Origin: Patescibacteria group bacterium
GTDB taxonomy: Bacteria; Patescibacteriota; Minisyncoccia; UBA6257; HR35
Direction of reading: 5' to 3'
DNA length: 19,970 bases
Assembly: GCA_023480925.1 (NCBI GenBank)
Contig: JAMCWY010000007.1
Location: 1-19,970, forward strand
Shown here: positions 4,645 through 19,970 of the stretch, in pieces
Layout: every line of letters begins with the position of its first letter
How positions within the stretch are numbered: the first letter of the stretch is position 1
Made by a program: the position numbers and the translations under genes
The notes under the pieces: generated by a model
Seen by the model: only the letters and a program-made list of their open reading frames with translations
The model's database searches: none
What the model was told of the DNA's origin: nothing

Positions 4645-5323
4645 TCCCGGTTATCCTGACTGAACTGGTGTTATTATTTAATGATAAACCCAAAAACAAG
4701 TTTTGCGAATTGCCACCAAAAGGCATGGCCGAGCCATCTTTGAATAAAAGCGGCCGACCGTAAGGCGAAGTAAAGATCGCCTCAAACCGATTAAACGAAA
4801 TCGGCTGAGCCAAACTCGAGGTCGCGATAGTTAAACTAACGCCGTTGAAATCATTCTCCAAAAGAGTACTTGAAGGAAAACTGTCGTGCGGGACAAAACT
4901 TAATCCGCTTGTCAAATCTAAATAAGTCGCCCCGTTTGAAAGAAGATTGAAAGACGAGCTGGCGACACTGGCGCAATTGATGGTCGAGGTGGCGTAGCCG
5001 ACAACTTGATAAGATGAAGTCGTGAAAATTAAACCAATACCGCAAACAGTTTGATTGCCGACCAAAGTCACGGACTCGAAACTTAGATGGGAAGCGGTTT
5101 GAAGATTATTAGTTAAAGTGATTATTTTCCGGTTTAGTTTCAAAAAATTCTGGTTTAAGGAAGTATACTTGATAAACAAACCAAAAATAATCGCGGTCGC
5201 CAAAAGAATTATCACCATTTCAACCAGAGTAAAAGCCCGAGGCTGAAAATTATTTTTCCTCCGTTTTAAAAAATCGTTCCGGTTTTCTGGCTGCCGCAAA
5301 CGCGCTATTTTTGTCATTGGCAT
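4619..5323 (-). CDS. Prepilin-type minor pilin
   Basis: ..FQPRA|FTLVEMVIILLATAIIFG is a prepilin motif with Glu at +5 and a hydrophobic helix. Confidence 0.7.
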   Translation of the reverse strand: MPMTKIARLRQPENRNDFLKRRKNNFQPRAFTLVEMVIILLATAIIFGLFIKYTSLNQNFLKLNRKIITLTNNLQTASHLSFESVTLVGNQTVCGIGLIFTTSSYQVVGYATSTINCASVASSSFNLLSNGATYLDLTSGLSFVPHDSFPSSTLLENDFNGVSLTIATSSLAQPISFNRFEAIFTSPYGRPLLFKDGSAMPFGGNSQNLFLGLSLNNNTSSVRITGIGQVILNQ

Positions 5324-5352
5324 CGTATTTTTATTCCTGCTGTAAATTTAAA

Positions 5353-6231
5353 CTAGCCCAAGCTTAACCAGTTAAAATAAAATTTGCTTAGCCAGCCGCC
5401 GCCAAACATTGTTATTATTATACCCAAAAAGAGAAACGGGACAAAAGGCACTTCTTGAAAAAATTTTTTCTTCGCCATCAACCTAGCCAAGCCGTAAATC
5501 GAACCAAAAAGAAAAGACAAAAATAAAGCCATAGCCAAATCGCCCCAGTTTAGAAACAAGCCCATTAAAAATATAACCTTGGCGTCGCCCAAACCCATAC
5601 CCCGGCCAAGAGTGGCGAGAAAAACAAAGACAAAAATAATTGAAAAAACATAGGCGCGAAAAAGCTGATCGGTCAATCTCAACGCTGGCGGGAAAAGGTA
5701 ATTAAATCGGCCGGTAAAATTTAAATTCTCAAACGTCTGTTTGATGAATCCGGGCAAGTGGCCGGCAAGCAGAAACGGCGCGAATTGAAAAATTAGCCAA
5801 ACAATAACGCCAAACCAAATAAACCGCTCGTCAATATAGGTTGTTTTAAAATCAAATAAGGCTAAAACAAAGATAATGCTCAAAAAAATTAAGTAATAAA
5901 TCGAGCTGAACCAAATTAAAAAGCCACCGTTAAAAAAGTTCCGGCCGGAAATATCGATAATACTAAAAGCCAAAAGACTGACCCAGACGCCGGTTAAAAT
6001 TTCGACAAGCGGATAACGCCAGGAAATTTTTTGGTCGCAATCGCGGCATCGACCCTTTTGAACCAAAAAACTGACGATCGGAATTAGTTCAAACCATCTT
6101 AGTTGTTTTAGGCAATTAGGACATTTTGATCGAGAAAAGATAAAATCCTCCTCCGCCTCCAAACGAAGAGCGATATTATTCAATAAACTGCCTAGAAAAA
6201 GACCAAAAATAAAAAACCCGATAAAAATCAT
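5353..6231 (-). CDS. pilD: Prepilin peptidase / N-methyltransferase (peptidase A24)
   Basis: A polytopic membrane protein. The N-terminal CPNC..(17)..CRDC module is followed by an A24-type core that includes GLGDAKV. Confidence 0.9.
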   Translation of the reverse strand: MIFIGFFIFGLFLGSLLNNIALRLEAEEDFIFSRSKCPNCLKQLRWFELIPIVSFLVQKGRCRDCDQKISWRYPLVEILTGVWVSLLAFSIIDISGRNFFNGGFLIWFSSIYYLIFLSIIFVLALFDFKTTYIDERFIWFGVIVWLIFQFAPFLLAGHLPGFIKQTFENLNFTGRFNYLFPPALRLTDQLFRAYVFSIIFVFVFLATLGRGMGLGDAKVIFLMGLFLNWGDLAMALFLSFLFGSIYGLARLMAKKKFFQEVPFVPFLFLGIIITMFGGGWLSKFYFNWLSLG

Positions 6232-6252
6232 CCCAAATTATAAACGATAAAA

Positions 6253-6282
6253 CTAAAAAGGAGAGCTGACTCCCCTTTTTAG
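6253..6282 (-). terminator. Intrinsic terminator between the major pilin gene and pilD
   Basis: A 13-bp stem with one mismatch (CTAAAAAGGAGAG / CTCCCCTTTTTAG) and a 4-nt loop. On the minus strand the GC core is followed by UUUUUAGUUUU. A second 12-bp hairpin (6284-6312) directly precedes it and contains the pilin stop codon. Confidence 0.55.
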
Positions 6283-6302
6283 TTTCAAACTAAGATTTAT
6301 TC

Positions 6303-6869
6303 TTAGTTTGAAGTACAAATATTATTGCCTGTGGTGCAAGTAGTTGGTGCAAAAGTACTTATAGTTCCTCCGTTCGATCCAGTTACAGTTGTTTGGCCAG
6401 CGCCATTGCAAGCCCAGTTGCTTGGGTATTGCGACGAAACTTGATAGATCTGAGGATTAGTCGTTGACGACTCTTCCAAAGTTGCCATTAAAACAAAATG
6501 GTTCGCTATACCACCGCCAGTCGCGCCCGGAGCAGTGTTACCCTGATCCGTACAAGCGAAGTAGTAATAACCATTCCGACCCGAAGGACTAACCGGCAAA
6601 CCAATACCACCGCCGGTAGTAACACCGCTGGCAGCCAAGTTGCCGTTCAAAGTACTCCAATCAGTCGTTGTTGGGAAATAACCGTTTTTCGACAAATATT
6701 GAGCCAAATAATTCGAGACATTTTTAAGATCGCCAACGCGTTTGGTGTCTCGAGCTTGAATCGCGGTTGAACCGATATTCCTAAGAACGATCGCAGCCAA
6801 AATGCCGATAACCAGAATAACAACTGCCAATTCGATTAAAGTAAAAGCTTTGTTGTTGATGCGACGCAT
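6303..6869 (-). CDS. pilA: Type IV major pilin paralog 1
   Basis: MRRINNKA|FTLIELAVVILVIGILAAIVL.. is a short leader plus the FTLIE motif. The C-terminal globular part contains Cys residues. Confidence 0.85.
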   Translation of the reverse strand: MRRINNKAFTLIELAVVILVIGILAAIVLRNIGSTAIQARDTKRVGDLKNVSNYLAQYLSKNGYFPTTTDWSTLNGNLAASGVTTGGGIGLPVSPSGRNGYYYFACTDQGNTAPGATGGGIANHFVLMATLEESSTTNPQIYQVSSQYPSNWACNGAGQTTVTGSNGGTISTFAPTTCTTGNNICTSN

Positions 6870-6902
6870 TTTTGTGATTGATTCTGTTAAACTTTAATTC
6901 GA
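6721..6902. repeat. 182-bp direct repeat, copy 1 (pilin 5' module plus 33 nt of leader)
   Basis: By my base-by-base reading it is identical to 7518-7699 (offset 797 nt). Identity ends sharply on both sides. Confidence 0.9.
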
Positions 6903-6986
6903 CCAGTTTAAAATATAAATAATTAAATTAAATAAAGATAATTTTCAATTTATAATTTTGCGACCTTTGTTTTTTATATTATATTT

Positions 6987-7015
6987 ATTTTATCTTTTAA
7001 TTTGAATTAAGTCAA
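6987..7015 (-). promoter_or_regulatory. Candidate promoter for pilin paralog 1
   Basis: On the minus strand: TTGACT (7015-7010), a 17-nt spacer, then TAAAAT (6992-6987). The intergenic region is very AT-rich, so specificity is low. Confidence 0.3.
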
Positions 7016-7060
7016 ATCAAAATGTGGATAACGAAAAGACGATTTTAATCAAAAATCCGT

Positions 7061-7666
7061 TTATTCCACGATACAATAGCCATCGGCACCTGGTAAACTA
7101 AGCGTGCAAGAGCTGGGCCAGTTATAAGGCGTGCAAAACCAACCCGGAGGACCGTTCCAATTATTAGGCTCGTTCCAACCGACACTGTCGCTATAAATCT
7201 GAGGATTAGAAGACGTGCTTTCCTCGATAAAAGTCTCCAAAGTAAAATGATCGGCCCGGCTGACCAAGATACTGCCATTTTGCAAGGTATAATCGTTAGC
7301 GTTGTCAGTGCAAGGAAAATAGTTGTAATAAGTTGTTTGGTTTGAAACGCGAGGCGGCATCGGCAACTGATCCATTGTCTGAATAATGCCGGCGGAAATT
7401 AAAGCTTGGCCCAATTCATTCCAAGCCACGCCGGCGACCATCGAATCATTGCTTGTCGCGGTTGTAGTTGGATAATAGCCATATTCCTGATAATACTGAG
7501 CTAAATAAATGGTAACGTTTTTAAGATCGCCAACGCGTTTGGTGTCTCGAGCTTGAATCGCGGTTGAACCGATATTCCTAAGAACGATCGCAGCCAAAAT
7601 GCCGATAACCAGAATAACAACTGCCAATTCGATTAAAGTAAAAGCTTTGTTGTTGATGCGACGCAT
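7061..7666 (-). CDS. pilA: Type IV major pilin paralog 2
   Basis: The first 51 aa are identical to paralog 1. The C-terminal part is diverged but homologous (..CTD.., EES(T/S)(T/S)(S/T)NPQIY..). Confidence 0.85.
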   Translation of the reverse strand: MRRINNKAFTLIELAVVILVIGILAAIVLRNIGSTAIQARDTKRVGDLKNVTIYLAQYYQEYGYYPTTTATSNDSMVAGVAWNELGQALISAGIIQTMDQLPMPPRVSNQTTYYNYFPCTDNANDYTLQNGSILVSRADHFTLETFIEESTSSNPQIYSDSVGWNEPNNWNGPPGWFCTPYNWPSSCTLSLPGADGYCIVE

Positions 7667-7699
7667 TTTTGTGATTGATTCTGTTAAACTTTAATTCGA
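7518..7699. repeat. 182-bp direct repeat, copy 2
   Basis: Identical to 6721-6902. Confidence 0.9.
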
Positions 7700-7786
7700 T
7701 CTTAAATTTCAACGAACGCGTGTTTGTGTTTAAGTTTAAATTTTAATCGCGATTTTGATAAAACCGAAAAATCCATAGGTCAAAGA

Positions 7787-8989
7787 TTAAAGCGACTGAA
7801 CCGCGCTCGTCAGCTTCAATAAAGGAATCATCAATGATAATTCGAGAAAAGCCAACCCGCCGGCCAAGATTAGAATCATAAAAGGCTGGATCAACTCGCC
7901 CAACGACGCGGTCTTGTTCTCAATATCGTCTTTAAAATAAAGGTTAATTCGGTCAATGCCTTCGACAAGCTGACCGGTTTTTTCGCCGGTCTGAATCGTC
8001 TGAATCACGATTGCCGGGAACAGATCCGGAAATAAAACCAGGCTTTCATAGATTCGCTTTCCTTTTCTTGTTTCGTCCGCGACGACATTGAGAGCTTTTT
8101 CGTAAATTGGGTTATCCATACTTCGGCCAATCGTGTCAAATGTTTCCGGTACCGTCACGCCGCCACGGACTAAAAAACTAAGCGACTCGAGAAATCGCGA
8201 CAAGTAAATTTCTTTTATGATTGAACCAAAAACCGGCGTATGATCCAAGGTCACGAACAAAAAAAGTTTACCCTCGGTTGTTTTAAAATAATTAACGCCA
8301 TAATAAATGGCGAAGCCCAAAAAGATAATAATGTAAAGCCAGTCATGAATTATAAAAATTGCGATGTCGTTGAATATTCTCGTGATTAACGGAACCTGAA
8401 CTTTCGCTTCGACGAAGATCTTGGTAATTTGAGGAATGACTTCGATCGATAGAGTCAACATTGTTCCGATAAAAATACAAAAAACAAAAATTGGGTAGTA
8501 AGAAGCTTGAAGAAATTTTTCCATAAACCTATTTTGATTTTCAAGATACTCGGCCAAATAGGCCAAAGTCTCATCTAAATTGCCCGAGACCTCACCGATC
8601 TCAACAATTCGAATGTAAAAAATTGAAAAAATTTTCGGGAACTTGGAAAAAGATTGAGACAAACTCATCCCGGCTTGAAGATTGCTGTAAAGATCGAAAA
8701 ATACGCTTTTAAGACTGTTTTTTTTCGAACTTTGGTAAAGCGCCCGAAGCGACTCATCCAACGGCACCCGCGCTTTAACCAGATATGAAAGCTGACGGGT
8801 GAAAAAAGCCACATCTTTAATCGTAATCCGGTCGAGAATTGGAATTCTAAAAGCATTAACCGGAGAAACTTTTGTTGGCGTTAGATTCTGATCGGACAAG
8901 TACTGATAAGCGGCATTGATGTCATTTCCCTCAACCACGCCTTCCTTGAAATTACCCTCCCGATCGAAAGCTTTAAAGTTAAACTTCAT
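7787..8989 (-). CDS. pilC: Type IV pilus platform protein (GspF/PilC family)
   Basis: 400 aa with two GspF-like repeats and three TM segments. Its start overlaps the pilT stop by 4 nt. Confidence 0.92.
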   Translation of the reverse strand: MKFNFKAFDREGNFKEGVVEGNDINAAYQYLSDQNLTPTKVSPVNAFRIPILDRITIKDVAFFTRQLSYLVKARVPLDESLRALYQSSKKNSLKSVFFDLYSNLQAGMSLSQSFSKFPKIFSIFYIRIVEIGEVSGNLDETLAYLAEYLENQNRFMEKFLQASYYPIFVFCIFIGTMLTLSIEVIPQITKIFVEAKVQVPLITRIFNDIAIFIIHDWLYIIIFLGFAIYYGVNYFKTTEGKLFLFVTLDHTPVFGSIIKEIYLSRFLESLSFLVRGGVTVPETFDTIGRSMDNPIYEKALNVVADETRKGKRIYESLVLFPDLFPAIVIQTIQTGEKTGQLVEGIDRINLYFKDDIENKTASLGELIQPFMILILAGGLAFLELSLMIPLLKLTSAVQSL

Positions 8990-10050
8990 TTTGAAACCAT
9001 AAACGATCTTAATCTTTCCGGATTAGGCGCGTACTGGAGTGCCATCTCGATTGAAATTTGGCCGGCCTCAACCAATGTAACCAAAGATCGCTCCAAAGTG
9101 ATCATGCCCTGATCAAAACTTGTTTCAACAACTAGATCAATCTGATAAATTTTATTTTCTCGAATCAGATTTTTAACCGCCGACGTCGCGAATAATATTT
9201 CAACCGCCGGAATCCGACCATTCTCGATCTTTGGAACCAAACGCTGGGAGACGACTCCGATTAAACTGGAAGCAAGTTGAAAACGCGCCTGGCTTTTAAC
9301 CGTTTCGGGCAAAACATCGATGATTCGATCGATCGTCTGAGCGGCCGAGTTGGTGTGGAGCGTGCCCAAAACCAAGTGGCCGGTCTCGGCCGCGGTTAAA
9401 GCGATCGCGATCGATTCGGCGTCGCGCAACTCACCAATCATAATTAAATCCGGATCTTCGCGCAAAGCCGCCCGCAAAGCCCTATGCCAATTGGGCGAAT
9501 CTTTCGGAATTTCCCTCTGTGAGACAATCGCTTTGTCCGAAGAAAACAAAAATTCAATCGGCTCTTCAATCGTGATAATATGAATACTCCGTTTATGGTT
9601 AATCTCGTCGATAAGCGAAGCCAGGGTAGTTGACTTGCCCATTCCGGCCGGGCCAGCGATCAAGATAAAACCCTGACGCCGGTCGGTTAGCTCGTGCAAA
9701 ACCGGCGGCAAATTTAACTCCTCAATCGTTTTAATCGAAGCCTGAATCAACCGGAAAGCACCCGACCAACCGTTTGTTTGTAAATAAACGTTGACGCGAA
9801 ATCTGACATCGTCGTTTAAACCGAAGGAAAAGTCTAAGTCCTTCGCCTTGGCCAAACGTTCTTTTTGATCTTGATCCAAAATTGAAAATAAAATTTTTTC
9901 CGTTTCTCTGGCAACCATAATACCGTTCTCGGCGATTGAAATCAGTTCGCCGTCAATCCGCAAAGACGGAAATCGGCCCGGAACAATATGTAAATCCGAA
10001 GCATTCCGTTTTACCGCCAGTTCGAGCAAGTTTTTCAACTGTTCGTCCAT
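8986..10050 (-). CDS. pilT: Twitching-motility retraction ATPase
   Basis: 354 aa. It has Walker A GPAGMGKST, the Asp box/Walker B DPDLIMIGELRD, the His box TGHLVLGTLHTNSA and a PilT-type AVKNLIRE motif. Confidence 0.92.
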   Translation of the reverse strand: MDEQLKNLLELAVKRNASDLHIVPGRFPSLRIDGELISIAENGIMVARETEKILFSILDQDQKERLAKAKDLDFSFGLNDDVRFRVNVYLQTNGWSGAFRLIQASIKTIEELNLPPVLHELTDRRQGFILIAGPAGMGKSTTLASLIDEINHKRSIHIITIEEPIEFLFSSDKAIVSQREIPKDSPNWHRALRAALREDPDLIMIGELRDAESIAIALTAAETGHLVLGTLHTNSAAQTIDRIIDVLPETVKSQARFQLASSLIGVVSQRLVPKIENGRIPAVEILFATSAVKNLIRENKIYQIDLVVETSFDQGMITLERSLVTLVEAGQISIEMALQYAPNPERLRSFMVSK

Positions 10051-10079
10051 TGTTTATTTTTTGGTTAATTTTTAAATTT

Positions 10080-11804
10080 TTAAGTTATTTTAACAATTTC
10101 TTCAAGATTGACAAGCCCAGCCAACGCCTTTAAAATTCCATCTTGACGCAAACTGATAAAATTTTGCTTCGGCAACAACTTTGCCACTTCTTCTTCGGTT
10201 AAACCTTGATAAACCGCGTTTTTAATCTCGTCAGTTATCAAAACCACTTCAAAAATTCCGATTCGGCCAACAAAGCCTTTAAAATTACACTTTTGACAGC
10301 CCTGAGGATAATAAATTTGGTAGTTATCGCCTTTGGCGTACTTGTCGGTCAAACCGCCGGGCAGATTTTTGAAACTTTCGTTGATAATCTTTTTAAAATT
10401 TTCGTCAGCGTCTTTCTTAACCTTGCAATCATCGCAAAGCCGCCGAGCCAGACGTTGGGAAATTAAAAGCAAAATTGTTTGAGGTAGAAGAAACCGCTCG
10501 ATGCCAATGTCAACTAAACGCGTAATCGTCCCAAGAGCGTTATTGGTATGAATGGTTGAAAGAACGAGATGGCCAGTCAAAGAAGCGTGAACCGCCAACT
10601 CGGCCGTTTCCCGATCGCGGATTTCACCGACTAAAATAATGTCCGGGTCTTGTCTTAAAATTTCTCTTAAGCCGGTCGCGAAGGTATAGTTGATTTCCGG
10701 CTTAACTTGAGACTGGTTAACGCCGTCAATCTCATACTCAACCGGATCCTCCAAGCTAACCAAATTGACATTCTCTTTATTTAATTCTTGAAGCATGGCG
10801 TAAAGGCTGGTCGTCTTGCCCGAACCGGTCGGCCCGCTGATCAAAATCATTCCGAACGGCCGCTTGATTGCCGCTTTGATTTTGTCAAAATTAAAATCAG
10901 AAACGCCGATCTCGGGCAAACGCTTAAGGCCAACGCTTGGATCGAGAACTCTGATCGCGACCTTCTCCGTTCCCGCGACCGGCAAAATGCCGACGCGAAA
11001 ATCAATTTCACGGTCTTCAACCCAGGCTCGAAAACGGCCGTCTTGAGGCACCCGCGTCTCTTCAATTTTCATGTCGGCCAAAATTTTAATCCGATTGATC
11101 AGCTGATAATGAATATCCTTGGGGAAATAAGCGACGGTTTTAAGATCGCCTTGGATTCGAAAACGCAGTCTGGTCCGATCGCTCAAAGGTTCAAGATGAA
11201 CATCGGAAACTTTTTGAGCAACGCCTTCGGAAATAATAAACTCAATCAGTTTGATCACGGGCGCCTCCTCGGTCGGCAAAACTTCTTCGGTCAAACGAAC
11301 AATCTCTTTAGTCTGATCGTAAGGTTTGCGTTCGCGAAACTGATTAATCAAACCTTTCAGCTCTTTGCTAAAAAGATGATACTGGCGAATGGCGAAATAA
11401 AAATCGTTGAACGAAATTAAAAAAATCTTCGGCTCAACCCGAAGCGAGGTTTTAATGAACTCGATCGCCTCGGTTAAGTTTGGTTGGTTCGGATTAACCA
11501 CACCGATGTCGACTTCGTTATTCCGGTGATCGAAAGCGACGATCTGATAAACCTTGGCCGTATTCTCGGGGATAATCGTTAAAACTTTTTCGTCGATAAT
11601 TTCGTCTTGGTTGAAAACTTTAACCGGTAATTTAAAAATCTCTTTTTTAATTTTCAAAATCTCCTGGCCCGAAACGCGATTGGTTTGATAAAGATACTCT
11701 TCCAAACCAACCTTCCTTTCTTTAGCTGCCTCCAACCACGATTGGATTTGATCCGGGTAAAGTTCTTTAATCTTATTAGTTAAAGTTTCTTCCACGTTTG
11801 GCAT
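10080..11804 (-). CDS. pilB: Type IV pilus assembly ATPase (GspE/PilB family)
   Basis: 574 aa. An N-terminal GSPII-type domain is followed by GPTGSGKTT, DPDIILVGEIRD, TGHLVLSTIHTNNA and the tetracysteine motif CDDC..CQKC. Confidence 0.93.
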   Translation of the reverse strand: MPNVEETLTNKIKELYPDQIQSWLEAAKERKVGLEEYLYQTNRVSGQEILKIKKEIFKLPVKVFNQDEIIDEKVLTIIPENTAKVYQIVAFDHRNNEVDIGVVNPNQPNLTEAIEFIKTSLRVEPKIFLISFNDFYFAIRQYHLFSKELKGLINQFRERKPYDQTKEIVRLTEEVLPTEEAPVIKLIEFIISEGVAQKVSDVHLEPLSDRTRLRFRIQGDLKTVAYFPKDIHYQLINRIKILADMKIEETRVPQDGRFRAWVEDREIDFRVGILPVAGTEKVAIRVLDPSVGLKRLPEIGVSDFNFDKIKAAIKRPFGMILISGPTGSGKTTSLYAMLQELNKENVNLVSLEDPVEYEIDGVNQSQVKPEINYTFATGLREILRQDPDIILVGEIRDRETAELAVHASLTGHLVLSTIHTNNALGTITRLVDIGIERFLLPQTILLLISQRLARRLCDDCKVKKDADENFKKIINESFKNLPGGLTDKYAKGDNYQIYYPQGCQKCNFKGFVGRIGIFEVVLITDEIKNAVYQGLTEEEVAKLLPKQNFISLRQDGILKALAGLVNLEEIVKIT

Positions 11805-11807
11805 TGG

Positions 11808-12107
11808 TTATTCAAATATATTCTGTTTGCCAATTTCCGAAGGCGTCAAAGTTGGAATAGTTAGGCTTTGGGCCGGCGGAACAAGATTTTTCAAATTATT
11901 CGCCGCCTGATTAATATCATATTTTTGAATATAATTCATCTCGTTTTGAATCCGAGTCATTTCCGGCGAAACCGGCGCTTCTTTTTTCAAAATGCCGAAA
12001 TGCCATAACAACAACCAGCCAGCCAAACCAACGAAGACAAGAACGATCAAACTGAGACCAAGATCAAGCCAAGATGATTTTTTATTTTTATCGAAATTAA
12101 TTTTCAT
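11808..12107 (-). CDS. Small single-pass membrane protein, pilus-locus associated
   Basis: 99 aa with one TM helix (WLDLGLSLIVLVFVGLAGWLLLW). It is coupled to the upstream gene through an overlapping TAATG stop/start. No family was recognised. Confidence 0.5.
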   Translation of the reverse strand: MKINFDKNKKSSWLDLGLSLIVLVFVGLAGWLLLWHFGILKKEAPVSPEMTRIQNEMNYIQKYDINQAANNLKNLVPPAQSLTIPTLTPSEIGKQNIFE

Positions 12108-12688
12108 TATTTTGTCGTTGGCGCGTTTGGATTAATCAGCTTAACCGGCAGAAGATAATAGGTTTGATAGATTAAATCGGCTTTAGTTCCGCTCGCCGTC
12201 CGATTCAAACTCATTTCGTTCAAATCAAAAAGACGGCTGTAATTATAAATTGAATTAAATAGACCGATTAAATGGGGATAATCGCCGTTATAGGTTAGAT
12301 GAAAAACTTCCGGTTGAAGCGACTGAATATTCAACTCCGGCAAATCAATTGTGGTCCCGGCGATAAAATTGATATTTTGCAATTCAGCCGCGCCGTTCGA
12401 ACTTAAAATTTGGTTCAAGATCAAACTCGTCTCGTCATTTTTGAACGTTCGCGGCAGATAAATATCGAGGTACGGCTGGCTCGAGACCAAAGATTGAATG
12501 TTGGCGCTTTGGCTCAAAGTTTGACTTAGATTTTGTAAAACCTTAACCTTGGCCAACTCGATTTTTTGCTCGTTGTTCTTTTCAATTAAACTTAAATCCG
12601 AACGATAATTCGGCAGAATACCTCTGAACAATAACGAGATAATGCCGATGATTAAAAAGACGATAACAAGATTAATGATTAGGCGCAT
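12107..12688 (-). CDS. PilO-like pilus alignment protein (tentative)
   Basis: An N-terminal TM helix is followed by a predicted coiled region, and the gene sits in the pilM-N-O position. The call rests on architecture and synteny only. Confidence 0.5.
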   Translation of the reverse strand: MRLIINLVIVFLIIGIISLLFRGILPNYRSDLSLIEKNNEQKIELAKVKVLQNLSQTLSQSANIQSLVSSQPYLDIYLPRTFKNDETSLILNQILSSNGAAELQNINFIAGTTIDLPELNIQSLQPEVFHLTYNGDYPHLIGLFNSIYNYSRLFDLNEMSLNRTASGTKADLIYQTYYLLPVKLINPNAPTTK

Positions 12689-13190
12689 TGAAAAGATTTT
12701 TGTTTAATTTGCCATCAAAGGTCAAATCAACCGCGCCCGTCTTTGAATCAATATTGAAATCATCGTTCAAATCAGTAAAGTTTGGACTCGTTTTGAAATA
12801 AGCGATGACTCGAACCGCCTGAAAAAGATTCGGCACTGTTCCTTTAATTTCAAAGACGCCGGTTTGAACGTCAACCTGAAAGCTCTTGACAGTTAGTTCT
12901 TTCGGCAAGGTATTATCGATATTGTTCAAAAGAACAACCGGCGATCGGCGTTGACCGATCAATTTTTCCAGGTAAAGAAATTGGATAAACGCGCTGTATT
13001 CTTTGCCGCTTAAAGCATTCAAATTCAAACTGTTGATGGTACCGTCAATTTTGTTTTTATTTTGGCTGATAGTGTTGTTTAAACGTCCTTGCCAAAAAAT
13101 CAAACCGAAGTTAGCCGACCAGAGCAAGCCGTAGGCGGCGGCCAGAACTAAAATTAATTTAACCGGCGCGGTTTGAAGAAAATCTTTCAT
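12672..13190 (-). CDS. PilN-like pilus alignment protein (tentative)
   Basis: A single TM helix near the N-terminus, directly downstream of pilM. I did not see the canonical INLLP motif. Confidence 0.45.
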   Translation of the reverse strand: MKDFLQTAPVKLILVLAAAYGLLWSANFGLIFWQGRLNNTISQNKNKIDGTINSLNLNALSGKEYSAFIQFLYLEKLIGQRRSPVVLLNNIDNTLPKELTVKSFQVDVQTGVFEIKGTVPNLFQAVRVIAYFKTSPNFTDLNDDFNIDSKTGAVDLTFDGKLNKNLFNAPNH

Positions 13191-13223
13191 TGATTTTTCC
13201 CTCTTGGCCCAAGGTCAAGACGA

Positions 13224-14285
13224 TTATTTTATTTTATCAAAAAAATATTTAAAACAAGCGCCCAAGGCTTGGCTCAAAACCGGTCCGCGCTTCAACTCAA
13301 CGCCCTTAACCCGGCTAGGCAAAATAATTTTATCGAAAGGGTCCATTAAAGCGATTGGGAATTTGGTTATTTTCGACGCGAGCAAATTCAAAAAACCAGG
13401 CGCTAAAACTAAACCGCCGGTTAAGAGCAAAGTATCGATATTAATCAAAAATCTTTCTTCAACTTCGTTAACCGACTGAGTTAGTTCGTTCGCCAAATTG
13501 CCAACGAAATTAAAAATATTCGCCTGAAGATCGCTCTCCTCGGGCGGCAAATTAAAACCATTCTCAACCAAAAAATCTTCGGCTCGATCGAAAACAACGT
13601 TCATCATTGTCGCCATCGATTGAATCAAATCGTACGCTCGGAATTGAATTTTTTTGCCGTAGATTATTTTATTCTGGTGGAAAACCAAAAACAAAGAATA
13701 ACTCGTGCCCAAATCAATGATGGCCTTAGGCGACGTATCAACCAAAAACGGCTCAATCGCCAAGAATTCCGGAATAGTTTTGCGCAATTTTAAACCGGCG
13801 ATCATCGAAGCATTTTGAAATTTTTCAATTAAATTTTTGGGCGAGGCGACCATAAAAATCAGCCAACGCGGTTGGCTTTCTTGCTGATAAATATTTTGGA
13901 ATTGGAAAGCGCGCCAATCAATCGCCACCTCGTCCGCGGCGATCGGAATATACTTGCTTGCCTCGTAAATGATGGCGTTTTTTAAATTTTTTTCCGAAAT
14001 CAACGGCAAAGAAAAAAAAGAGGAAAAGAGCAAGTTAGCCGGCAAGACGAAAATCGCCTCCCGCGTCTTAAAATCTTTCGTCACCTCGCCCAAGAGTTGG
14101 CCAAGATTTTCCTCAAAAGTCTGAGACGTATCGAGCAAACGGCCAAACTGCTCCGACCAAGACAAAGACGTGATAGAATAATTTAAAAGCTTGATATTGC
14201 GGTTCACTTTTTCCGTCTCCACCACTTTGATGTGTTTTGAACCCAAATCAATGCCAAGAATTTTATTTTGACCGAAAATGGACAT
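13224..14285 (-). CDS. pilM: Type IV pilus assembly protein PilM (actin-like ATPase fold)
   Basis: MSIFGQNKILGIDLGSKHIKVVE.. is the typical PilM N-terminus. The start is taken at the ATG at 14285, because the longer ORF to 14351 is just the antisense of comF. Confidence 0.85.
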   Translation of the reverse strand: MSIFGQNKILGIDLGSKHIKVVETEKVNRNIKLLNYSITSLSWSEQFGRLLDTSQTFEENLGQLLGEVTKDFKTREAIFVLPANLLFSSFFSLPLISEKNLKNAIIYEASKYIPIAADEVAIDWRAFQFQNIYQQESQPRWLIFMVASPKNLIEKFQNASMIAGLKLRKTIPEFLAIEPFLVDTSPKAIIDLGTSYSLFLVFHQNKIIYGKKIQFRAYDLIQSMATMMNVVFDRAEDFLVENGFNLPPEESDLQANIFNFVGNLANELTQSVNEVEERFLINIDTLLLTGGLVLAPGFLNLLASKITKFPIALMDPFDKIILPSRVKGVELKRGPVLSQALGACFKYFFDKIK

Positions 14286-14976
14286 TCTTAAATTATACCA
14301 AAAAACCAAAGAAGGACTGACCCAAGTTTTAGCCCCGTCTTTTTGTTTCAACTGCCAAAAACTTTTACGCGATCAATATCTTTGTTCCAACTGCCTACTT
14401 GAAACAAATTTTAGTTTGGATCTCTGCTGCCCATTTTGCGATCGGCGCAAACCTTTTATCGTCAACCCGGCCAAAATCTGTTGCCACAACTTTCTCTCAA
14501 GCCTGATTTATTTCGGCCAGTATGAAAACAAACCGATCAACCAACTGATAAAAACCGCCAAATATCAAGGTTATTTCACGATTTTTGACTGGCTCGGCGG
14601 TCTAATGGCGGGGAAACTGAAACAATTAAGATTTTCTCCCGATTACAAACTCGTCCCCATTCCCCTTCACCCCAAACGTTTTAAAGAACGCGGTTTTAAC
14701 CAGGCCGAGGTTATCGCCAATCAAATCAGTTCTTTGACCGGTTTGGAAGTTAAAAATAGCCTGATTCGAATCATCAACAACCAAAGCCAAGCGAGTTTAA
14801 CCGGAAAAGATCGGGAGCAAAACGTTAAAGGAATTTTTAAAACAATCGAGCCAACGCCGAAAAAAATCATTTTGATTGATGATGTTTGGACCACCGGCGC
14901 GACTCTAATCGAAGCAAGCAAAACATTAAAAGCAAATAATGCTAAAATTATCATAGGCTTGACAATTTTGAAATAA
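14278..14976 (+). CDS. comF: ComF-family protein (phosphoribosyltransferase-type competence protein)
   Basis: An N-terminal Cys-rich finger (CFNC..CSNC..CPFC) plus the PRTase motif IILIDDVWTTGATL. Confidence 0.85.
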   Translation: MDILKLYQKTKEGLTQVLAPSFCFNCQKLLRDQYLCSNCLLETNFSLDLCCPFCDRRKPFIVNPAKICCHNFLSSLIYFGQYENKPINQLIKTAKYQGYFTIFDWLGGLMAGKLKQLRFSPDYKLVPIPLHPKRFKERGFNQAEVIANQISSLTGLEVKNSLIRIINNQSQASLTGKDREQNVKGIFKTIEPTPKKIILIDDVWTTGATLIEASKTLKANNAKIIIGLTILK

Positions 14977-15142
14977 TCGCTCCTTGCCAAAATAACGCGG
15001 AACTATACGAACCACTAAGTAAAACAATCAGCGGTTTAAGTAAGAAAAAAGGTCGAAATAAAAATAAAATAAAAAATCAGAATCTAATCAAACCGGGTCG
15101 CGTTATGATTTTGAATCCGCATAAAAAATTGACTTCTTCCTC

Positions 15143-15217
15143 GCCCCTATGGTGAAACGGACATCACACTGGTCTTCGGAACCAGCATTGGAGGTTCGAA
15201 TCCTCCTAGGGGCACCA
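15143..15217 (+). tRNA. tRNA-Arg (anticodon UCG), CCA encoded
   Basis: Hand-folded cloverleaf. The acceptor stem is GCCCCTA/TAGGGGC and the D stem is GTGA/TCAC with a GG loop. The anticodon stem is CTGGT/ACCAG with loop CT-TCG-GA. The T stem is GGAGG/CCTCC with loop TTCGAAT. Discriminator A and CCA follow. Confidence 0.93.
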
Positions 15218-16718
15218 GAATAAAACTAGACGGCTTTTTGGAAGCCATTTGGTGGGCGGCCCGCAAGGCCGCCCATTGAGTTTGCCCCGATGAATCCTTG
15301 CCGCTCGGCGCGCGCAGGCGCGCCTCGCGGTTGGCCAAAACGAGGTTCGAGCCGAAAAGTTTTTCGGCGGCAACCTTTTTCTCAAAAAGGTTGCTCTCTT
15401 GTGCGATTTTAGGCAAGGAACTTGCCTCTTTTATCCATTCTGCCATCGGTTCGAGCCAGCCAGTCCGCTTTTGTTCAAGTCGGGTAGATTGCTCCTCCAG
15501 CGACTTCTTTTCGGAAAGTAATTTTGCTTTTTCCACGCGATAAATTTCACGGTCAATGTCTTGCTCCAAATAACCATCAAGAAGTCGCTGAAGTTTAAGC
15601 GAGATGGTTTTTATTTTCTCTCGCGCTTCTTGAACAAAAGCGGTTGAGGATTGGGCGGCTCCGATTTTTTCTTTTTCAAGTTTGGCGCTTAGTTTTGCCG
15701 CCCAATCCGGCCTCAAAGAAAATTTTTGAAGCAGAGAGGATAACTGCCGATCCAGTTCTTCCTCGCGCACATATGGCTGACCACACTGGATATTCTTCTT
15801 GGTGCAACGATAGTAAGTATGACCTTTTTGGATTTCGGCAGTTATCATGCGTCCACACTCCCCACATCGCAGTAAACCAACAAATGGTTTTTCAACCTTA
15901 CCTTTAGTTTTTGGTTTGCCTCTCTGCTTCAATACATCTTGAACTTTATCAAAAATTTTCTTTGAGACGACTGGCTGGTGCTTGCCCTCGTGGATTTCAC
16001 CGCCATAGCGAAAATGGCCATAGTAGAAGGGATTGGAAAGGATAAAAGTAATTCTGTCTCGGTGGAGTCGCTTGCCGTTTTTGGAATGGACACCGGATTG
16101 CGCCAAAAAATTGGAAATATCCTCAAGACGAGAGTGGTTCTGTGCATATAGCTCAAACGCTCTACGAATGATTGAGGCGCGTTTTTTGTCCACAATGATA
16201 GATTTATTGCGAACGTCATTTATGTATCCTATTGGAGCTAAACTGGTGTATTCTCCGCGCCTCACTTTTTGGCGCAATCCTCGTTTGGTGTTCTCGGCAA
16301 GCGAATCCACATAGTATTTGCTTTGCCCAAAGGCGATACTCAACATAAATTTTCCTTGCGATGTATTTTCTGCCCAAAAGGTTGGAAATTTGAGTATCGC
16401 CAAATGCCCGCAATCCAAAAGATAGATAATGCGTCCACCGTCAACAGAATTGCGCGCCAGTCTGTCGGGATGCCAGGCCAAAATTCCGTTGGCTTCACCA
16501 GCTTCAATACGTTTTATCATTTCACCAAAAATCAGTCTGCCCGGAATTTTGGCCGACTGTTTTTCTACAAGCTCCTCGATAATGTTCAGTCCTTCGGTTT
16601 TCGCAAAGGCGTGCAATTCTGTGATCTGCGCTTCAATACTCAACACCTGCTTGTCCTCAACATCGGTGGACTTGCGGGCATACAAAAAGAATTTTTGCGG
16701 TGAAATAATTTTGTCCAT
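15147..16718 (-). CDS. Large serine recombinase (resolvase/invertase catalytic domain, recombinase domain, zinc ribbon, coiled coil)
   Basis: It has YARKSTD (the nucleophile Ser context), HPDRLARN, the recombinase domain, the zinc ribbon CGECG..YYRC..C and a long coiled coil. The last ~68 codons are encoded by IR-L and the antisense of the tRNA, so that tail is probably not a real domain. Confidence 0.9.
   Translation of the reverse strand: MDKIISPQKFFLYARKSTDVEDKQVLSIEAQITELHAFAKTEGLNIIEELVEKQSAKIPGRLIFGEMIKRIEAGEANGILAWHPDRLARNSVDGGRIIYLLDCGHLAILKFPTFWAENTSQGKFMLSIAFGQSKYYVDSLAENTKRGLRQKVRRGEYTSLAPIGYINDVRNKSIIVDKKRASIIRRAFELYAQNHSRLEDISNFLAQSGVHSKNGKRLHRDRITFILSNPFYYGHFRYGGEIHEGKHQPVVSKKIFDKVQDVLKQRGKPKTKGKVEKPFVGLLRCGECGRMITAEIQKGHTYYRCTKKNIQCGQPYVREEELDRQLSSLLQKFSLRPDWAAKLSAKLEKEKIGAAQSSTAFVQEAREKIKTISLKLQRLLDGYLEQDIDREIYRVEKAKLLSEKKSLEEQSTRLEQKRTGWLEPMAEWIKEASSLPKIAQESNLFEKKVAAEKLFGSNLVLANREARLRAPSGKDSSGQTQWAALRAAHQMASKKPSSFILVPLGGFEPPMLVPKTSVMSVSP
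15213..15349. repeat. Left 137-bp inverted repeat (IR-L)
   Basis: Its reverse complement equals 16887-17023 at 136/137 positions. The single mismatch is 15288 C versus 16948 A. It starts inside the tRNA 3' end (C-A-CCA). Confidence 0.95.
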
Positions 16719-16822
16719 AATATTGAAAACTTAAATGGCCGCCCTAGTTGTACTCAACTCGATTGCTCAAGCTGACTAAGACGGCCATTAAAATAAGCAA
16801 TCGGTCAGTTGAGTACATAATC

Positions 16823-16851
16823 ATTATAGCAAAAATTTTTTTGTTGGGCAA
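16823..16851 (-). promoter_or_regulatory. Candidate sigma70 promoter of the recombinase gene
   Basis: On the minus strand: TTGCCC (16851-16846), a 17-nt spacer, then TATAAT (16828-16823). This predicts a leader of about 95 nt before the ATG at 16718. Confidence 0.5.
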
Positions 16852-16886
16852 ATCAAATCCGAGACAGAATTAAAATCGCACAAGAG

Positions 16887-17023
16887 CGAACCTCGTTTTG
16901 GCCAACCGCGAGGCGCGCCTGCGCGCGCCGAGCGGCAAGGATTCATCAGGGCAAACTCAATGGGCGGCCTTGCGGGCCGCCCACCAAATGGCTTCCAAAA
17001 AGCCGTCTAGTTTTATTCTGGTG
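16887..17023. repeat. Right 137-bp inverted repeat (IR-R)
   Basis: Reverse complement of 15213-15349 (136/137). A further 16 nt (16871-16886) match 15396-15411 across a 46-nt gap in the left arm. Confidence 0.95.
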
Positions 17024-17244
17024 TATTTATACAACCAAGCTCGAACGTATTTTAGCAGAAATTTCTGACCAAAGGAAGCCGCCCCGCCGCCGCTCGCTAA
17101 CGCTCGCCAGCCAGCAAAAAAGTTTTCTTCGCTTTTCCTGATGTACGCGCGACCGATTTTTTCTTCTAAAAAGGAAGGGGATATTTTTCTGCTCGGTTCC
17201 GCCCTCCAAGTATTCGGGCGGTGCGGCGGGGCTAACAATGCGGG

Positions 17245-17305
17245 CGAGGCAAAGCAAAACTATTTTTGCGGGAGGAAAAGGATTTGCTTTGCCTCGACTT
17301 TTTTT
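17245..17305 (+). terminator. Plus-strand intrinsic-terminator-like hairpin with no plus-strand gene upstream
   Basis: A 14-bp perfect stem (CGAGGCAAAGCAAA / TTTGCTTTGCCTCG) with a 24-nt loop that is partly self-pairing, followed by AC and T7. Confidence 0.4.
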
Positions 17306-17377
17306 GTGCGGGGATTTGGTATCCGCCGCGCAGGAGGGTGCGGGAGGAATGCGCGGCGGATTTTCGCGGGCAAGGCC

Positions 17378-17434
17378 GCAAAAAAGAAAACCTCGCAGTC
17401 CATCCAGAAAAATCTGAAATGAAACTGCGAGGTT
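17378..17434 (-). terminator. Intrinsic terminator of the minus-strand operon
   Basis: An 11-bp stem (AACCTCGCAGT / ACTGCGAGGTT) overlaps the stop codon at 17433-17435. On the minus strand it is followed by UUCUUUUUUG. The loop is long (24 nt). Confidence 0.55.
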
Positions 17435-18008
17435 AGGGTTGCTGACGAAAGAACTGCTGGAGATAGCTGGCGTAGATCGTTTGAGCAACTTTTGGCACTT
17501 GATTTTCTTCCGAGACAATCTCGAAATCGTAGATTCCGGCGTGTCTGGAAGATTCCAGTACTTCCAGCTCTTCGCGTGCGCTCCGCAAGCGATGTCCGTT
17601 CGTATCCCTGTCGTCTCTCGCCAATCGTCGCTGTAGAGCTTCGATGGATGGTGGTGAAATGTACACGATATAGAGCTGATCCGGGAATGCTTCCGTCATT
17701 ACGCTTACTCTGCCGATTGGCCAATCAAGCACGGGGAAGTTACCCTCCTTCAATGCTTGTTCGATTGGTTGGCGAGGTGTTGCATAGCGAACACCGTAAA
17801 GTTCGTTAATCACGAGGAACTCTCCTCGTTCCAACATCTCATCCATCTCTCCGCCGCTTACGGAAATCTTGTTTCTCTCTCCCTTCCGAAGTGGACGAGT
17901 CATGAATGGCGAGATGTACACGAATCTACTATCCAGTCGAATCAACTCATCGATTATCGAGTTCTTGCCGACGCCCGATGGTCCCAAGAGAAGCAGAAAC
18001 TTGCTCAT
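17433..18008 (-). CDS. Guanylate-kinase-family P-loop nucleotide kinase
   Basis: It has GPSGVGKNS (P-loop), TRPLRKGE, ERGEFL, YGVRYATP and ISPPS..L..RL. The RBS is GGAGGGAGGG. Its ATG overlaps the upstream stop (ATGA). Confidence 0.8.
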   Translation of the reverse strand: MSKFLLLLGPSGVGKNSIIDELIRLDSRFVYISPFMTRPLRKGERNKISVSGGEMDEMLERGEFLVINELYGVRYATPRQPIEQALKEGNFPVLDWPIGRVSVMTEAFPDQLYIVYISPPSIEALQRRLARDDRDTNGHRLRSAREELEVLESSRHAGIYDFEIVSEENQVPKVAQTIYASYLQQFFRQQP

Positions 18009-18850
18009 CTCGCCCTCCCTCCTTCCTTATTCAGAGCCTCTTTCAATTCAACCGCCGCTTTCTCAACCGCGCTTTGCCAGAATTGCTTACTTTGTTGCGG
18101 ATAAAGAATGCCACGCGATGAATTGATGAACGCTCCGGTGCCTTCAGAATTGAGCAGTTTGCGCAAGTCGGTATAACTGCCGCCTTGAGCACCTACCCCA
18201 GCGAGAAGAATCGGCATGTTGTCGGGGACAATCGTGCGAATCTCCTCCATGTTAAGTCCAGCAGTCGAGGAAAGCACGAGAATCATGTTTTCACTACGAT
18301 TCCAGCGATTTATCACAAGATCGAGCACATGCCGCCAAAGTGGTTGACCGTCTTGTATGACGACGTCCTGGACGATACCGCCGGATGGATTACTTGTCTT
18401 GACAAGAACCACAATGGATTTATCCGTCAGTTCGACAAGAGGAAGCATGACATCATCTCCCATGTAGGGATTGACGACAATGCCATCCGCTTGGAGTAAA
18501 CCGAACAGATTTTGAATGTACGCCTCCATCGTGTTTTCGATATCGCCGATCTTGCAATCGACAATAACAGGAACGCCTTGGTTCGACGTATGAATGTAGT
18601 CAATCAGTTCTTTCAAAACATCGTGACCGCCATTCAACACATCAAAGAAAGCCTTCTGTGCCTTGAAGGCGCAGACATGTGGCGCCGTTACATCGATTAC
18701 TCCCCGAAGAAATGCGAGTACCTTCTCCTCATCGGAAGTATTCCCTACGGTGATTTCAGGCGGCATTTTCTTCAGGTCGGGATCGAGCCCACAACACAGA
18801 AGCGTGTTATGAACTCTCATCCGTTCAAGGATTTGTTCATTCGCTTTCAT
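18005..18850 (-). CDS. pyrF: Orotidine-5'-phosphate decarboxylase, type 2 family
   Basis: It has LCCGLDPD, DCKIGDIENT (the D-x-K-x-x-D-I-x-x-T motif) and GVGAQGG. The start is taken at the ATG at 18850, which is preceded by AAGGAGATAAAA. The ORF-track start at 18928 would overlap the upstream gene by 92 nt. Confidence 0.85.
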   Translation of the reverse strand: MKANEQILERMRVHNTLLCCGLDPDLKKMPPEITVGNTSDEEKVLAFLRGVIDVTAPHVCAFKAQKAFFDVLNGGHDVLKELIDYIHTSNQGVPVIVDCKIGDIENTMEAYIQNLFGLLQADGIVVNPYMGDDVMLPLVELTDKSIVVLVKTSNPSGGIVQDVVIQDGQPLWRHVLDLVINRWNRSENMILVLSSTAGLNMEEIRTIVPDNMPILLAGVGAQGGSYTDLRKLLNSEGTGAFINSSRGILYPQQSKQFWQSAVEKAAVELKEALNKEGGRAR

Positions 18851-19658
18851 TTTTATCTCCTTTTTTGATGAGACCCTTGTGGCCGAGATGATCCTGCTTT
18901 GCTTGCAGGTGCAGTTTTGTGTGTTCATTCGGCTCGATAACGACGGGTATATAATCCGCCACCGTATAGCCGTTTTCAGCGAACACGTCCGCCTTCTTGG
19001 GATTGTTAGTCGCTAAGTTAATCCGGCACGTTGTTGGAATGCCGAAAAACTTGAGGATACAGATGACACCCGAATATGTCCGAATGTCGATCACTCCCCC
19101 GGGGGCAAGCAGAGAAGCCGACTCCACAGTGTTGACACCAAGCACGTCCTGGATCCACAGTGTCGCGAGCTTAAAGGTAAGCCCCATACCCCGGCCGTCT
19201 TGGCGTGGGATATTGATGAGCATTCCTTCACCGACTTCTTCGATTGCCTTTAGTGCGAGATGAAGTTGATCGCGACACTCACATGTTAGATCGCCAAAGA
19301 CTTGGCTAGTTTCGCAACCGGAGTCGGTACGCAAAACGAGTTGGTCTTTGTTTTTGAACACGGGGACAAGTAGGTCTTTGTTCAACTCTGCCTTGACCAT
19401 CACGGAATATTTCTCCCACTGATCATCGATCGCAAAGTTGTACTGCCAGAACTTGCCGTGCTCGGTTTTGAGAATACCGATGCCTCTCCGCTCAACTGCG
19501 TAATAGCGGGTGACGCCATTCTCGTTGACGCTGAAGCGTTTTGAGAACGGCTCCATCGAGCGTTTCAGCAGTTCGAGAAAAGCACTGACTCCTTCGGCTG
19601 ATATATTCGATCTCTCGCAGATGTCAGCCATGCTCGGCGGTTTAATTCCGTTTTTCAT
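18837..19658 (-). CDS. GTP cyclohydrolase II-family protein with a ~55-aa N-terminal extension
   Basis: It aligns by eye to E. coli RibA: SGCETSQVFGDLTCEC (three Zn Cys), RQDGRGMGL, TNNPKK and a C-terminal ..HLGHKG. The RBS is GAGGAGG, 5 nt before the ATG. Confidence 0.8.
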   Translation of the reverse strand: MKNGIKPPSMADICERSNISAEGVSAFLELLKRSMEPFSKRFSVNENGVTRYYAVERRGIGILKTEHGKFWQYNFAIDDQWEKYSVMVKAELNKDLLVPVFKNKDQLVLRTDSGCETSQVFGDLTCECRDQLHLALKAIEEVGEGMLINIPRQDGRGMGLTFKLATLWIQDVLGVNTVESASLLAPGGVIDIRTYSGVICILKFFGIPTTCRINLATNNPKKADVFAENGYTVADYIPVVIEPNEHTKLHLQAKQDHLGHKGLIKKGDKNESE

Positions 19659-19970
19659 CGTTACCTCCTCTTTCTGGATTGTAAGTATTTCTAGTTTGCT
19701 GCGCTGGCGGATAAACGCCGTCGCTTTTCTTTTTCACGAATGAGCCGTGAATCAGTCGAAAGGCCAACCTCCTCTCCGCTTCGTAGACCATCGGCGTGCC
19801 GATAAGCGCGCCGCATTTCGGACATTTGAGGTTTGGCATGTCGGCTTTGCTGCTCATCTTCGATTGCAAAAGCGCGAGCTCTTGCGGCTCAAAGATTCGG
19901 TCGAGATACATTCGGAGCAATCGGCCGTGCCCATCTTTTTGATAGAGGGAGAAATATTCCGTGATGGTCA
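19642..19970 (-). CDS. Hypothetical protein with a CPKC zinc-ribbon-like motif, probably 5'-truncated by the window edge
   Basis: The frame stays open to 19970 (..TITEYFSLYQKDGHGRLLRMYLDRIF..). The ORF-track start at 19920 is a TTG. It overlaps the next gene by 17 nt. No family was recognised. Confidence 0.45.
   Translation of the reverse strand, partial: TITEYFSLYQKDGHGRLLRMYLDRIFEPQELALLQSKMSSKADMPNLKCPKCGALIGTPMVYEAERRLAFRLIHGSFVKKKSDGVYPPAQQTRNTYNPERGGNDEKRN

Follow-up and report, generated by a model that had tools for sequence, protein, structure and literature searches.

Layout of the locus

The window considered here is a 19,970-nt stretch of DNA from a Patescibacteria group bacterium (contig JAMCWY010000007.1 of assembly GCA_023480925.1, positions 1 to 19,970), and the subject is a cassette within it that combines a gene for a large serine recombinase (LSR), long inverted repeats and the 3′ end of a tRNA gene. 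A repeat search of the window finds two inverted arms of 137 nt each, IR-L (15213-15349) and IR-R (16887-17023), which are spaced 1537 nt apart and match at 136/137 positions, the sole mismatch being 15287 versus 16949. A sequence-only reading made earlier had reported this pair, and it is real. Its suggestion that the repeats extend to about 153 bp if a 46-nt indel is allowed is also borne out, in that a perfect 16-nt inner pair (15396-15411 with 16871-16886) takes the repeat to 153 nt once 46 nt present on the left only (15350-15395) are skipped. Owing to the single mismatch the longest exact repeat between the arms is 74 nt, a length that common assembly k-mers can bridge, and the orientation in which the cassette was assembled is, given that mismatch, credible.

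The tRNA gene, tRNA-Arg(TCG), is at 15143-15217 of the plus strand (ARAGORN, with an Rfam tRNA score of 65.6 bits). IR-L opens with the final five bases of this gene, CACCA, and TGGTG closes IR-R, in agreement with the earlier statement that an outer repeat end falls on the tRNA terminus. What does not hold from that reading is the idea that the repeats wholly enclose the recombinase. Its open reading frame (ORF; 15147-16718, minus strand) lies only partly inside them, with the last ~68 codons spanning the 46-nt segment, IR-L and the antisense strand of the tRNA. An Rfam search of 14500-18200 matched the tRNA alone, leaving the repeats, the leader of the recombinase gene and a GC-rich module outside IR-R (module D) without a known family.

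In what follows R is the repeat, and three sites are distinguished: site 1 reads tRNA - core - R; site 2 reads R - core - tail and is inverted; site 3 reads flank - core - tail. State A is the orientation present in the window, in which the recombinase ORF runs into the antisense tRNA, and state B is the flipped orientation, in which it reads through R and then the tail. The features of the cassette are as follows, with the attachment-site assignments being those proposed below.

15143..15217, plus strand: tRNA-Arg(TCG) with encoded CCA; putative integration target and attB-derived half of site 1 (attL)
15213..15217, plus strand: site 1 core; C72-A73 at 15213-15214 is the inferred crossover dinucleotide, and CCA occupies 15215-17
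15213..15349, minus strand: IR-L (= R); codes for recombinase residues ~459-503 and is the putative element-side half of site 1
15350..15395, minus strand: 46-nt coding segment present in the gene copy only; perfect hairpins GCAACCTTTTTgagAAAAAGGTTGC and GCCGAAAAacTTTTCGGC; encodes NLFEKKVAAEKLFGS
15147..16718, minus strand: ORF of the large serine recombinase, state A, 523 aa; its last 22 codons are antisense tRNA
16719..16851, minus strand: recombinase promoter (from a promoter scan) and structured 5′ leader (16719-16822)
16871..16886, plus strand: inner 16-nt repeat block, pairing with 15396-15411; the block CTCTTGTGCGATTTT is kept here in many loci
16887..17023, plus strand: IR-R, a putative spare inverted recombinase 3′ end; mirrored core TGGTG at 17019-17023; with the tail, the attP-like site 2
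17024..17068, plus strand: tail exon of 14 codons (YLYNQARTYFSRNF) and a stop, in frame with IR-R; outer half of site 2
17069..17250, no strand assigned: D module with GC-rich long stem-loops; outer limit approximate

The recombinase and its relatives

By its domain content the 523-aa enzyme is, as judged from its sequence, an LSR that is remote from the characterised ones. Pfam recognises Resolvase (PF00239, residues 11-156, E = 1.9e-18), Recombinase (PF07508, E = 2.9e-16) and Zn_ribbon_recom (PF13408, E = 1.4e-10), so the features of the class are all present: a catalytic domain with its serine motif, a Recombinase domain, and a zinc beta-ribbon with an inserted coiled-coil. In an alignment of homologues (alignment A1) the serine nucleophile motif YARKSTDVEDKQ is invariant, as are C285, C288, C305 and C312. 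The closest solved structure is that of A118 integrase (E = 7e-6), with residues 168-335 aligning with its C-terminal domain, and the score for CcrB is 120 bits against a cut-off of 900 bits. Two other assignments were considered and rejected. An IS607-family serine transposase is excluded by an NCBIfam IS607 score of 23 bits versus a cut-off of 110, and a Hin/Gin-type invertase by the 523-aa length with LSR domains and by repeats that are 63-219 nt long in the family.

The search for extra copies elsewhere that the sequence-only reading had recommended was productive. A protein search scored ~8000 homologues, the best 120 of which are 65-88% identical; among these 120 the ones with a named source are nearly all from lineages of the candidate phyla radiation (CPR), and many are on contigs of 1.8-2.3 kb. 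There are at least 600 matches in species-representative genomes, and 581 of the matches listed encode a relative. The counts given below refer, unless stated otherwise, to 163 annotated loci (80 from species-representative genomes, 80 from metagenomes and a few others), almost all labelled CPR (Patescibacteria). An antisense tRNA is present at the 3′ end of the recombinase gene in 119/163, with 33 tRNA species and 16 amino-acid identities represented, and complete inverted repeats of 63-219 nt (median 117) surround the gene in 107/163. The median identity of the two repeats within a locus is 98.6%, compared with only ~70-90% between the copies of other loci and the repeat of the window, which indicates that the two copies at a locus evolve in concert. 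Recurrence of the same architecture in 107 independently assembled loci disposes of the earlier concern that one repeat arm might be an assembly artefact; chance and assembly error are excluded as the source of the repeats.

Conservation in alignment A1 runs on through the part encoded by IR-L, after which the sequences close with G[FIVL]EP, the antisense translation of the tRNA T-arm. Several contigs carry two elements, and multi-copy examples are provided by L170, L098, L102 and L163. Among viral contigs in IMG/VR the best relative is 42% identical, and given that figure the family does not appear to be evidently phage-borne. Some contigs with the element have been binned in metagenome-assembled genomes of Gammaproteobacteria, Bdellovibrionales, Phycisphaerae, Bacteroidetes or Syntrophaceae (L005, L008, L009, L011, L015, L035 and others). 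These labels probably reflect mis-binning of short repeat-bounded contigs and not true host range. A different type of relative, 65% identical, is found in L052 (2402-2560) downstream of a tRNA-Ala, with a plain terminator hairpin and a promoter between the two and no inverted repeat; the contig stops within this gene, which may represent a family member without repeats.

A coding tail outside the distal repeat

The sequence directly outside the distal repeat is kept in all loci, and in ~110/163 the tail is found upstream of the gene. The tail continues the reading frame of the repeat with the consensus xLYNxARTYFxxN and then a stop; in the window 17024-17068 has the translation ...SFILVYLYNQARTYFSRNF before the stop codon. 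Among 106 tail copies the stop comes after 13-14 codons in 84%, and the codons for Leu, Arg and Thr vary synonymously (CTN/TTR, CGA/AGA and ACN, respectively). From this pattern of variation the tail is judged to be coding, and to be a C-terminus of the recombinase that is readable only in the flipped cassette. State-B proteins do finish with the tail peptide. Two other identities for the sequence were rejected: a stand-alone small protein from IR-R plus tail, since an in-frame ATG is present in only 38/98 copies and at inconsistent positions, and a remnant tRNA half outside IR-R, since T-stem pairing is absent and there is a clear codon pattern instead.

The motif TCGAAC is present in both outer half-sites. 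On the tRNA side, where it belongs to the T-loop, it starts 16 nt from TGG, and on the tail side the distance is 20 nt, 4 nt more. A similar offset of the zinc-ribbon motif between attB and attP is a feature of serine integrases; for TCGAAC it is a lead only. Beyond the tail is module D, a GC-rich, strongly folding sequence of 200-360 nt that is common to related elements at different tRNAs. In the window it resembles other loci at the DNA level as far as 17205-17233, its fold is stronger than that of shuffled sequence (z = -3.0), and two Logan contigs that are 99.8% identical end at 17248, which is where the multi-copy part would end.

Two orientations of the recombinase gene

Among the best 120 homologues ~85 end in antisense tRNA (state A) and 9 with the tail (state B). 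In the set of 163 loci, 16 are flipped, 10 of them with the tail at the 3′ end of the gene and 6 with a sense-strand tRNA upstream of the promoter. Four state-B loci (L061, L075, L017 and L041) have the same tRNA-N72N73CCA-R junction as in state A, and single clusters of proteins at 90% identity mix state B with state A at several tRNAs, the repeat-encoded residues being identical. The most telling instance is L178 (state B), of which a 1718-nt stretch is shared at 100% identity with L179, L180 and L181, all in state A at tRNA-Lys. These three come from other JGI (Joint Genome Institute) metagenome samples with neighbouring accession numbers. The 3′ end of L178 matches the inverted upstream copy of L179-L181, and a single-nucleotide polymorphism (SNP) at position 28 of R remains with the gene body, which places the exchange between repeat position 28 and the outer end. 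The same SNP shortens the exact repeat, so the junction in L178 can have assembly k-mer support.

Flipping visibly alters only the C-terminus of the recombinase and the direction in which it is transcribed. State A is in ~7:1 excess, which suggests that the form without the tail is the stable one; the excess fits with the tail gating activity but does not prove it.

A tail is present on both sides of the gene in L099, L136, L168, L082 and L020. L099 is an extreme in this regard, being a perfect palindrome of 4651 nt in which arms of 1550 nt (1-1550 and 3102-4651) flank the recombinase segment, with each arm leading from tail to D to a gene for a cohesin-like surface protein. It is either a real two-tailed form or the result of an assembler walking through a collapsed repeat.

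A third site and the point of crossover

In most related loci whose sequence reaches far enough past the distal repeat there is a third site, with core, tail and D, at a distance of 0.3-6.2 kb and directly oriented with respect to the recombinase. Its frequency is 9/12 among loci whose flank exceeds 4.1 kb and 16/28 where the flank is 3-4.1 kb. D and its inverted partner D′ are repeats of 156-308 nt that are 90-100% identical (mostly ≥97%) and lie around variable cargo, which includes genes for Xre-type helix-turn-helix (HTH) proteins, lipoproteins, GMP synthase, dehydrogenases, a methyltransferase and pilin. A gene for an Xre-type HTH protein of ~70 aa recurs at the D′-side end of the cargo, near the cassette, in L008, L023, L050, L056 and L082; it may regulate the element.

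Comparison of the sites within loci narrows the point of exchange. Identity between sites 1 and 2 stops after tRNA position 72, whereas that between sites 3 and 2 stops after TG in 3 loci, after GTG/GAG in 8 and after the full TGGTG in 15. No bases other than positions 72-73 are shared by all three sites, which fits, on this comparison of end points, with a 2-bp crossover of the serine-recombinase type there. The overlap of repeat and tRNA is 5 nt in 53/91 loci and 6 nt in 18/91, the latter being close to what chance would give for a single further match, and in 75/91 the end of the distal repeat mirrors the final 5 nt of the tRNA. The core tracks the target: it is CACCA in 50 loci, CTCCA in 17 (with Gly, Thr and Cys tRNAs) and TACCA in 9 (Glu), with AGCCA also found. 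The residues encoded by the core (LV or LE) are invariant inside each of the ten 90%-identity protein clusters examined. Two direct hybrid sites with a shared core, as attL and attR should be, are thus found in related loci and not in the window.

The CCA end is also pertinent. It is encoded in 117/139 of the tRNAs adjacent to an LSR, compared with 41/103 of the other tRNAs of the same loci. Where site 3 is without CCA, the CCA that now follows the tRNA must come from the element.

A proposed integrated element

The window is probably the recombinase end of an integrated LSR element that has its attP in the last codons of its own recombinase gene, with IR-R as a spare inverted copy of that attP; we hold this with good confidence. 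The attP would be R - [N73'N72'] - tail, within those codons, and the attB would be a tRNA gene's 3′ end, where strands would be exchanged at the final base of the acceptor stem (position 72) and the discriminator (73). Integration, presumably catalysed by the recombinase, would join R antisense to the tRNA and so generate site 1 (attL, at 15213 in the window), leaving the tRNA intact and, in some cases, with a newly gained CCA. Tail and D would be shifted to the far end of the element as site 3 (attR), and the tail thereby detached from the gene. A spare inverted copy of R, tail and D just upstream of the recombinase promoter would form site 2 (in the window IR-R plus 17024-~17250). In this model it is the spare copy of R that gives the gene its long, nearly identical inverted repeats on either side.

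Exchange between the two copies of R would flip promoter and gene and so interconvert tail-less state A and complete state B, with the recombinase itself, rather than RecA, as the presumed agent. Recombination between sites 1 and 3, which are direct, is likely also a reaction of the recombinase and would restore the tRNA with its native trailer. The excised form would be a circle with two inverted copies of R-tail-D that part a recombinase segment from a cargo segment. The tail may well matter for activity. A more elaborate version, amounting to an inversion-controlled switch of lysogeny-like type in a minimal element, in which integration disarms the recombinase by loss of the 14-residue tail, a flip rebuilds the full enzyme, this form alone is able to excise, and the element writes CCA ends, shuttles cargo among CPR and has a circle akin to the 2-micron plasmid, is on balance doubtful.

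Several observations weigh against the proposal. Empty attB was not recovered, including by way of gmk homologues, for which the only relative has different synteny. No contig with an attP junction was recovered, terminal direct repeats were searched for and no circular contig was found, and no recombination directionality factor was identified. Site 3 is absent from the 2.9 kb to the right of the cassette in the window, where it is either outside the contig or lacking. Repeats are missing or decayed in ~10 loci. The state-B contigs are from short-read assemblies, with a SNP-resolvable junction only in L178, and the two-tailed contigs may have arisen where an assembler walked through a collapsed repeat. 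With canonical LSRs attP does not recombine with attL or attR, and flipping may accordingly be homologous exchange driven by RecA.

The right flank belongs with these points, and needs to be set against the left. The cassette has type IV pilus genes and a ComF-like one to its left, and gmk, pyrF and a ribA-like gene for GTP cyclohydrolase II to its right; GC content changes from ~0.40 (1-15000) to ~0.50 (17400-19970), and the compositional break noted by the sequence-only reading on that side of the cassette is thereby upheld. The genes of the right flank look like housekeeping genes. In L088/L089 the region is 83% identical over ribA-pyrF-gmk and D-like DNA is kept (matching 17080-17311), after which the sequence enters a radical-SAM/small-peptide locus, without tail, recombinase or tRNA and in place of the pilus genes. 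The right side may be explained by a gmk block carried as long cargo, by a rearrangement mediated by the element, or by two genomes joined via a shared element. The left-hand cluster (7787-14976), which is type IV pilus/competence-like and ends at the targeted tRNA, includes a T2SSE ATPase (10080-11804), PilM (13224-14351) and a ComF-like phosphoribosyltransferase (14278-14976).

Other explanations

Four other explanations of the cassette need to be weighed. Of the two offered by the sequence-only reading, a DNA inversion switch that flips the recombinase unit between facing the tRNA and facing an island operon has fared the better. The flipped orientation exists in 16/163 loci, near-identical copies are found both ways, and the tail becomes readable on flipping; what has not stood is the control that the switch was to exert, there being no sign of it over the tRNA or over an 'island operon', the genes to the right being gmk, pyrF and that for GTP cyclohydrolase II. 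A purely stationary version, that is phase variation with no integration or excision and with a tRNA association that is ancient and vertical, is quite unlikely. It would account for both orientations, for near-identity of the repeats within loci, and for a C-terminus swapped by flipping in the manner of shufflon or tail-fibre systems, but members of the same 90%-identity cluster are at several tRNAs, 33 tRNA species are used in all, there can be several copies per genome or contig, and the direct site 3 with variable cargo is what attL and attR would give. Somewhat greater weight is due to the possibility, still an unlikely one, that what is seen is a decaying or domesticated remnant in which an accidental inverted duplication has been homogenised by gene conversion, with flip and tail now functionless. 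Repeats that are decayed (75-90% identity) or lacking in some loci are in keeping with it, as is the fact that activity has not been demonstrated. Against it are the retention of the architecture and of intact ORFs in >100 loci over many CPR lineages, the maintenance of tail length, frame and synonymous variation, and a core that co-varies with the current target tRNA.

The second proposal of the sequence-only reading, an element with long terminal inverted repeats that carries a serine transposase, founders on the repeats not being termini: tail, D and the third site lie beyond IR-R. Many public contigs of 1.8-2.3 kb do consist of recombinase and repeats only, and the element is multi-copy, as a 1.8-kb insertion sequence should be. 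However, such short contigs are expected from assemblers at repeats longer than k, conservation passes IR-R into the coding tail (106 loci) and D, one repeat end is always at a tRNA and the other at the tail and never at random flanks, and the cores at the two ends are inverted, not direct as conservative insertion of a circle by a serine recombinase leaves them. An insertion sequence is accordingly very improbable. Hardest of all to credit is an assembly artefact or a chimeric join through a shared repeat, in spite of the GC jump from 0.40 to 0.50, the loss of synteny with L088/L089 across the cassette, and the breaking of Logan contigs at 17248. The repeat architecture is found in >100 independent assemblies, the exact repeat is only 74 nt, and a faulty join could affect only which right flank is attached in the window, not the cassette.

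Relation to known systems

The view that the arrangement is an unusual one was correct, as comparison with known systems illustrates. Serine integrase elements (A118/LI, phiC31, Bxb1, SPbeta; SCCmec Ccr; XisF) have the same domain set, and the likeness extends to the apparent 2-bp attP/attB crossover and to direct attL and attR around cargo, though similarity to characterised members is very low. The differences are that here attP would be in the last codons of the enzyme's own gene, so that integration replaces its C-terminal 14 residues; that a second, inverted attP-bearing gene end yields long repeats of 114-219 nt; that dozens of tRNA species are targeted, as set by positions 72-73, and not one gene; and that the element can apparently donate CCA. 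SSV1-type (fusellovirus) integrases have attP inside the integrase gene, with the consequence that integration into a tRNA gene splits it. They are, however, tyrosine recombinases of archaeal viruses, the split is mid-gene, and there is no spare inverted copy, making this a functional analogy and not a matter of membership.

Hin/Gin/Cin/Pin and the shufflons likewise flip a segment between inverted sites and thereby swap the C-terminal coding end of a gene. Those systems involve small serine invertases (or tyrosine Rci), sites of ~26 bp and an enhancer, and what they swap is tail fibre, flagellin or pilin; in the cassette the enzyme is an LSR, the repeats exceed 100 nt, and it is the recombinase itself that is altered. 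The yeast 2-micron plasmid (FLP/FRT, with 599-bp inverted repeats) resembles the inferred circle in having two unique segments, a target in each repeat and the recombinase on one segment. FLP is a tyrosine recombinase, though, and here no replication gene or circular contig was found, the likeness being to the inferred form. Tn4451/Tn5397 (TnpX/TndX) are also small LSR-moved units with a circular intermediate and imperfectly inverted ends, but their short imperfect ends are the sites and their targets are GA dinucleotides, whereas in the present case the long repeats lie within the element, which targets the end of a tRNA.

No description of the element was encountered in the full-text literature searched, from which many subscription papers are missing, so that novelty is not proven. 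As far as found, neither an attachment site in the enzyme's last codons nor a spare inverted copy that completes the gene by a flip has been reported for serine integrases. CPR bacteria (Patescibacteria) constitute a large, mostly uncultivated share of bacterial diversity, and we are aware of neither routine genetic tools for them nor a mobile element of theirs that is well characterised. With a 2-bp crossover at positions 72-73 and a matching core, the family is likely to be a main route by which genes move among these reduced genomes and, given its simple site logic, is a candidate integration tool with a predictable target. The combination of last-codon attachment site and spare copy also provides a testable model for control of directionality by a one-protein element, and flipping may serve as a control switch for the recombinase. 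From a practical perspective, the repeats systematically break CPR assemblies beside tRNA genes.

Structured features of the cassette

The DNA encoding the C-terminus of the recombinase (15350-15395 and 15213-15349, minus strand) consists of consecutive hairpins that compensatory changes have preserved without closing the ORF, which implies a dual constraint on this region. The hairpins of the 46-nt segment have compensatory changes in L082 and over 27 loci, IR-L contains hairpins with such changes also, and in alignment A1 the ORF is open through the IR-L stretch in homologues with complete C-termini. Just inside the core a hairpin with a T-run scores as terminator-like on the recombinase strand (15248-15230), with its mirror at 16988-17006.

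The scan places the promoter at 16851-16823, with TTGCCC, a 17-nt spacer and a TG-extended TATAAT. Downstream of it, the leader (16719-16822, minus strand), for which no Rfam family matches, has a conserved long-range helix, AATGGCCGTCT...GGGCGGCCATT, formed around inner helices and with many compensatory substitutions over 29 loci. Leaders of this kind, ~160-200 nt long, occur in about half of the family, those of the other members being ~40-60 nt. Near the outer limit of D, short GC-rich hairpin units at 17244-17297 and 17311-17371 recur at unrelated places in L022, L049, L070, L079 and L085, and look like small dispersed intergenic repeats.

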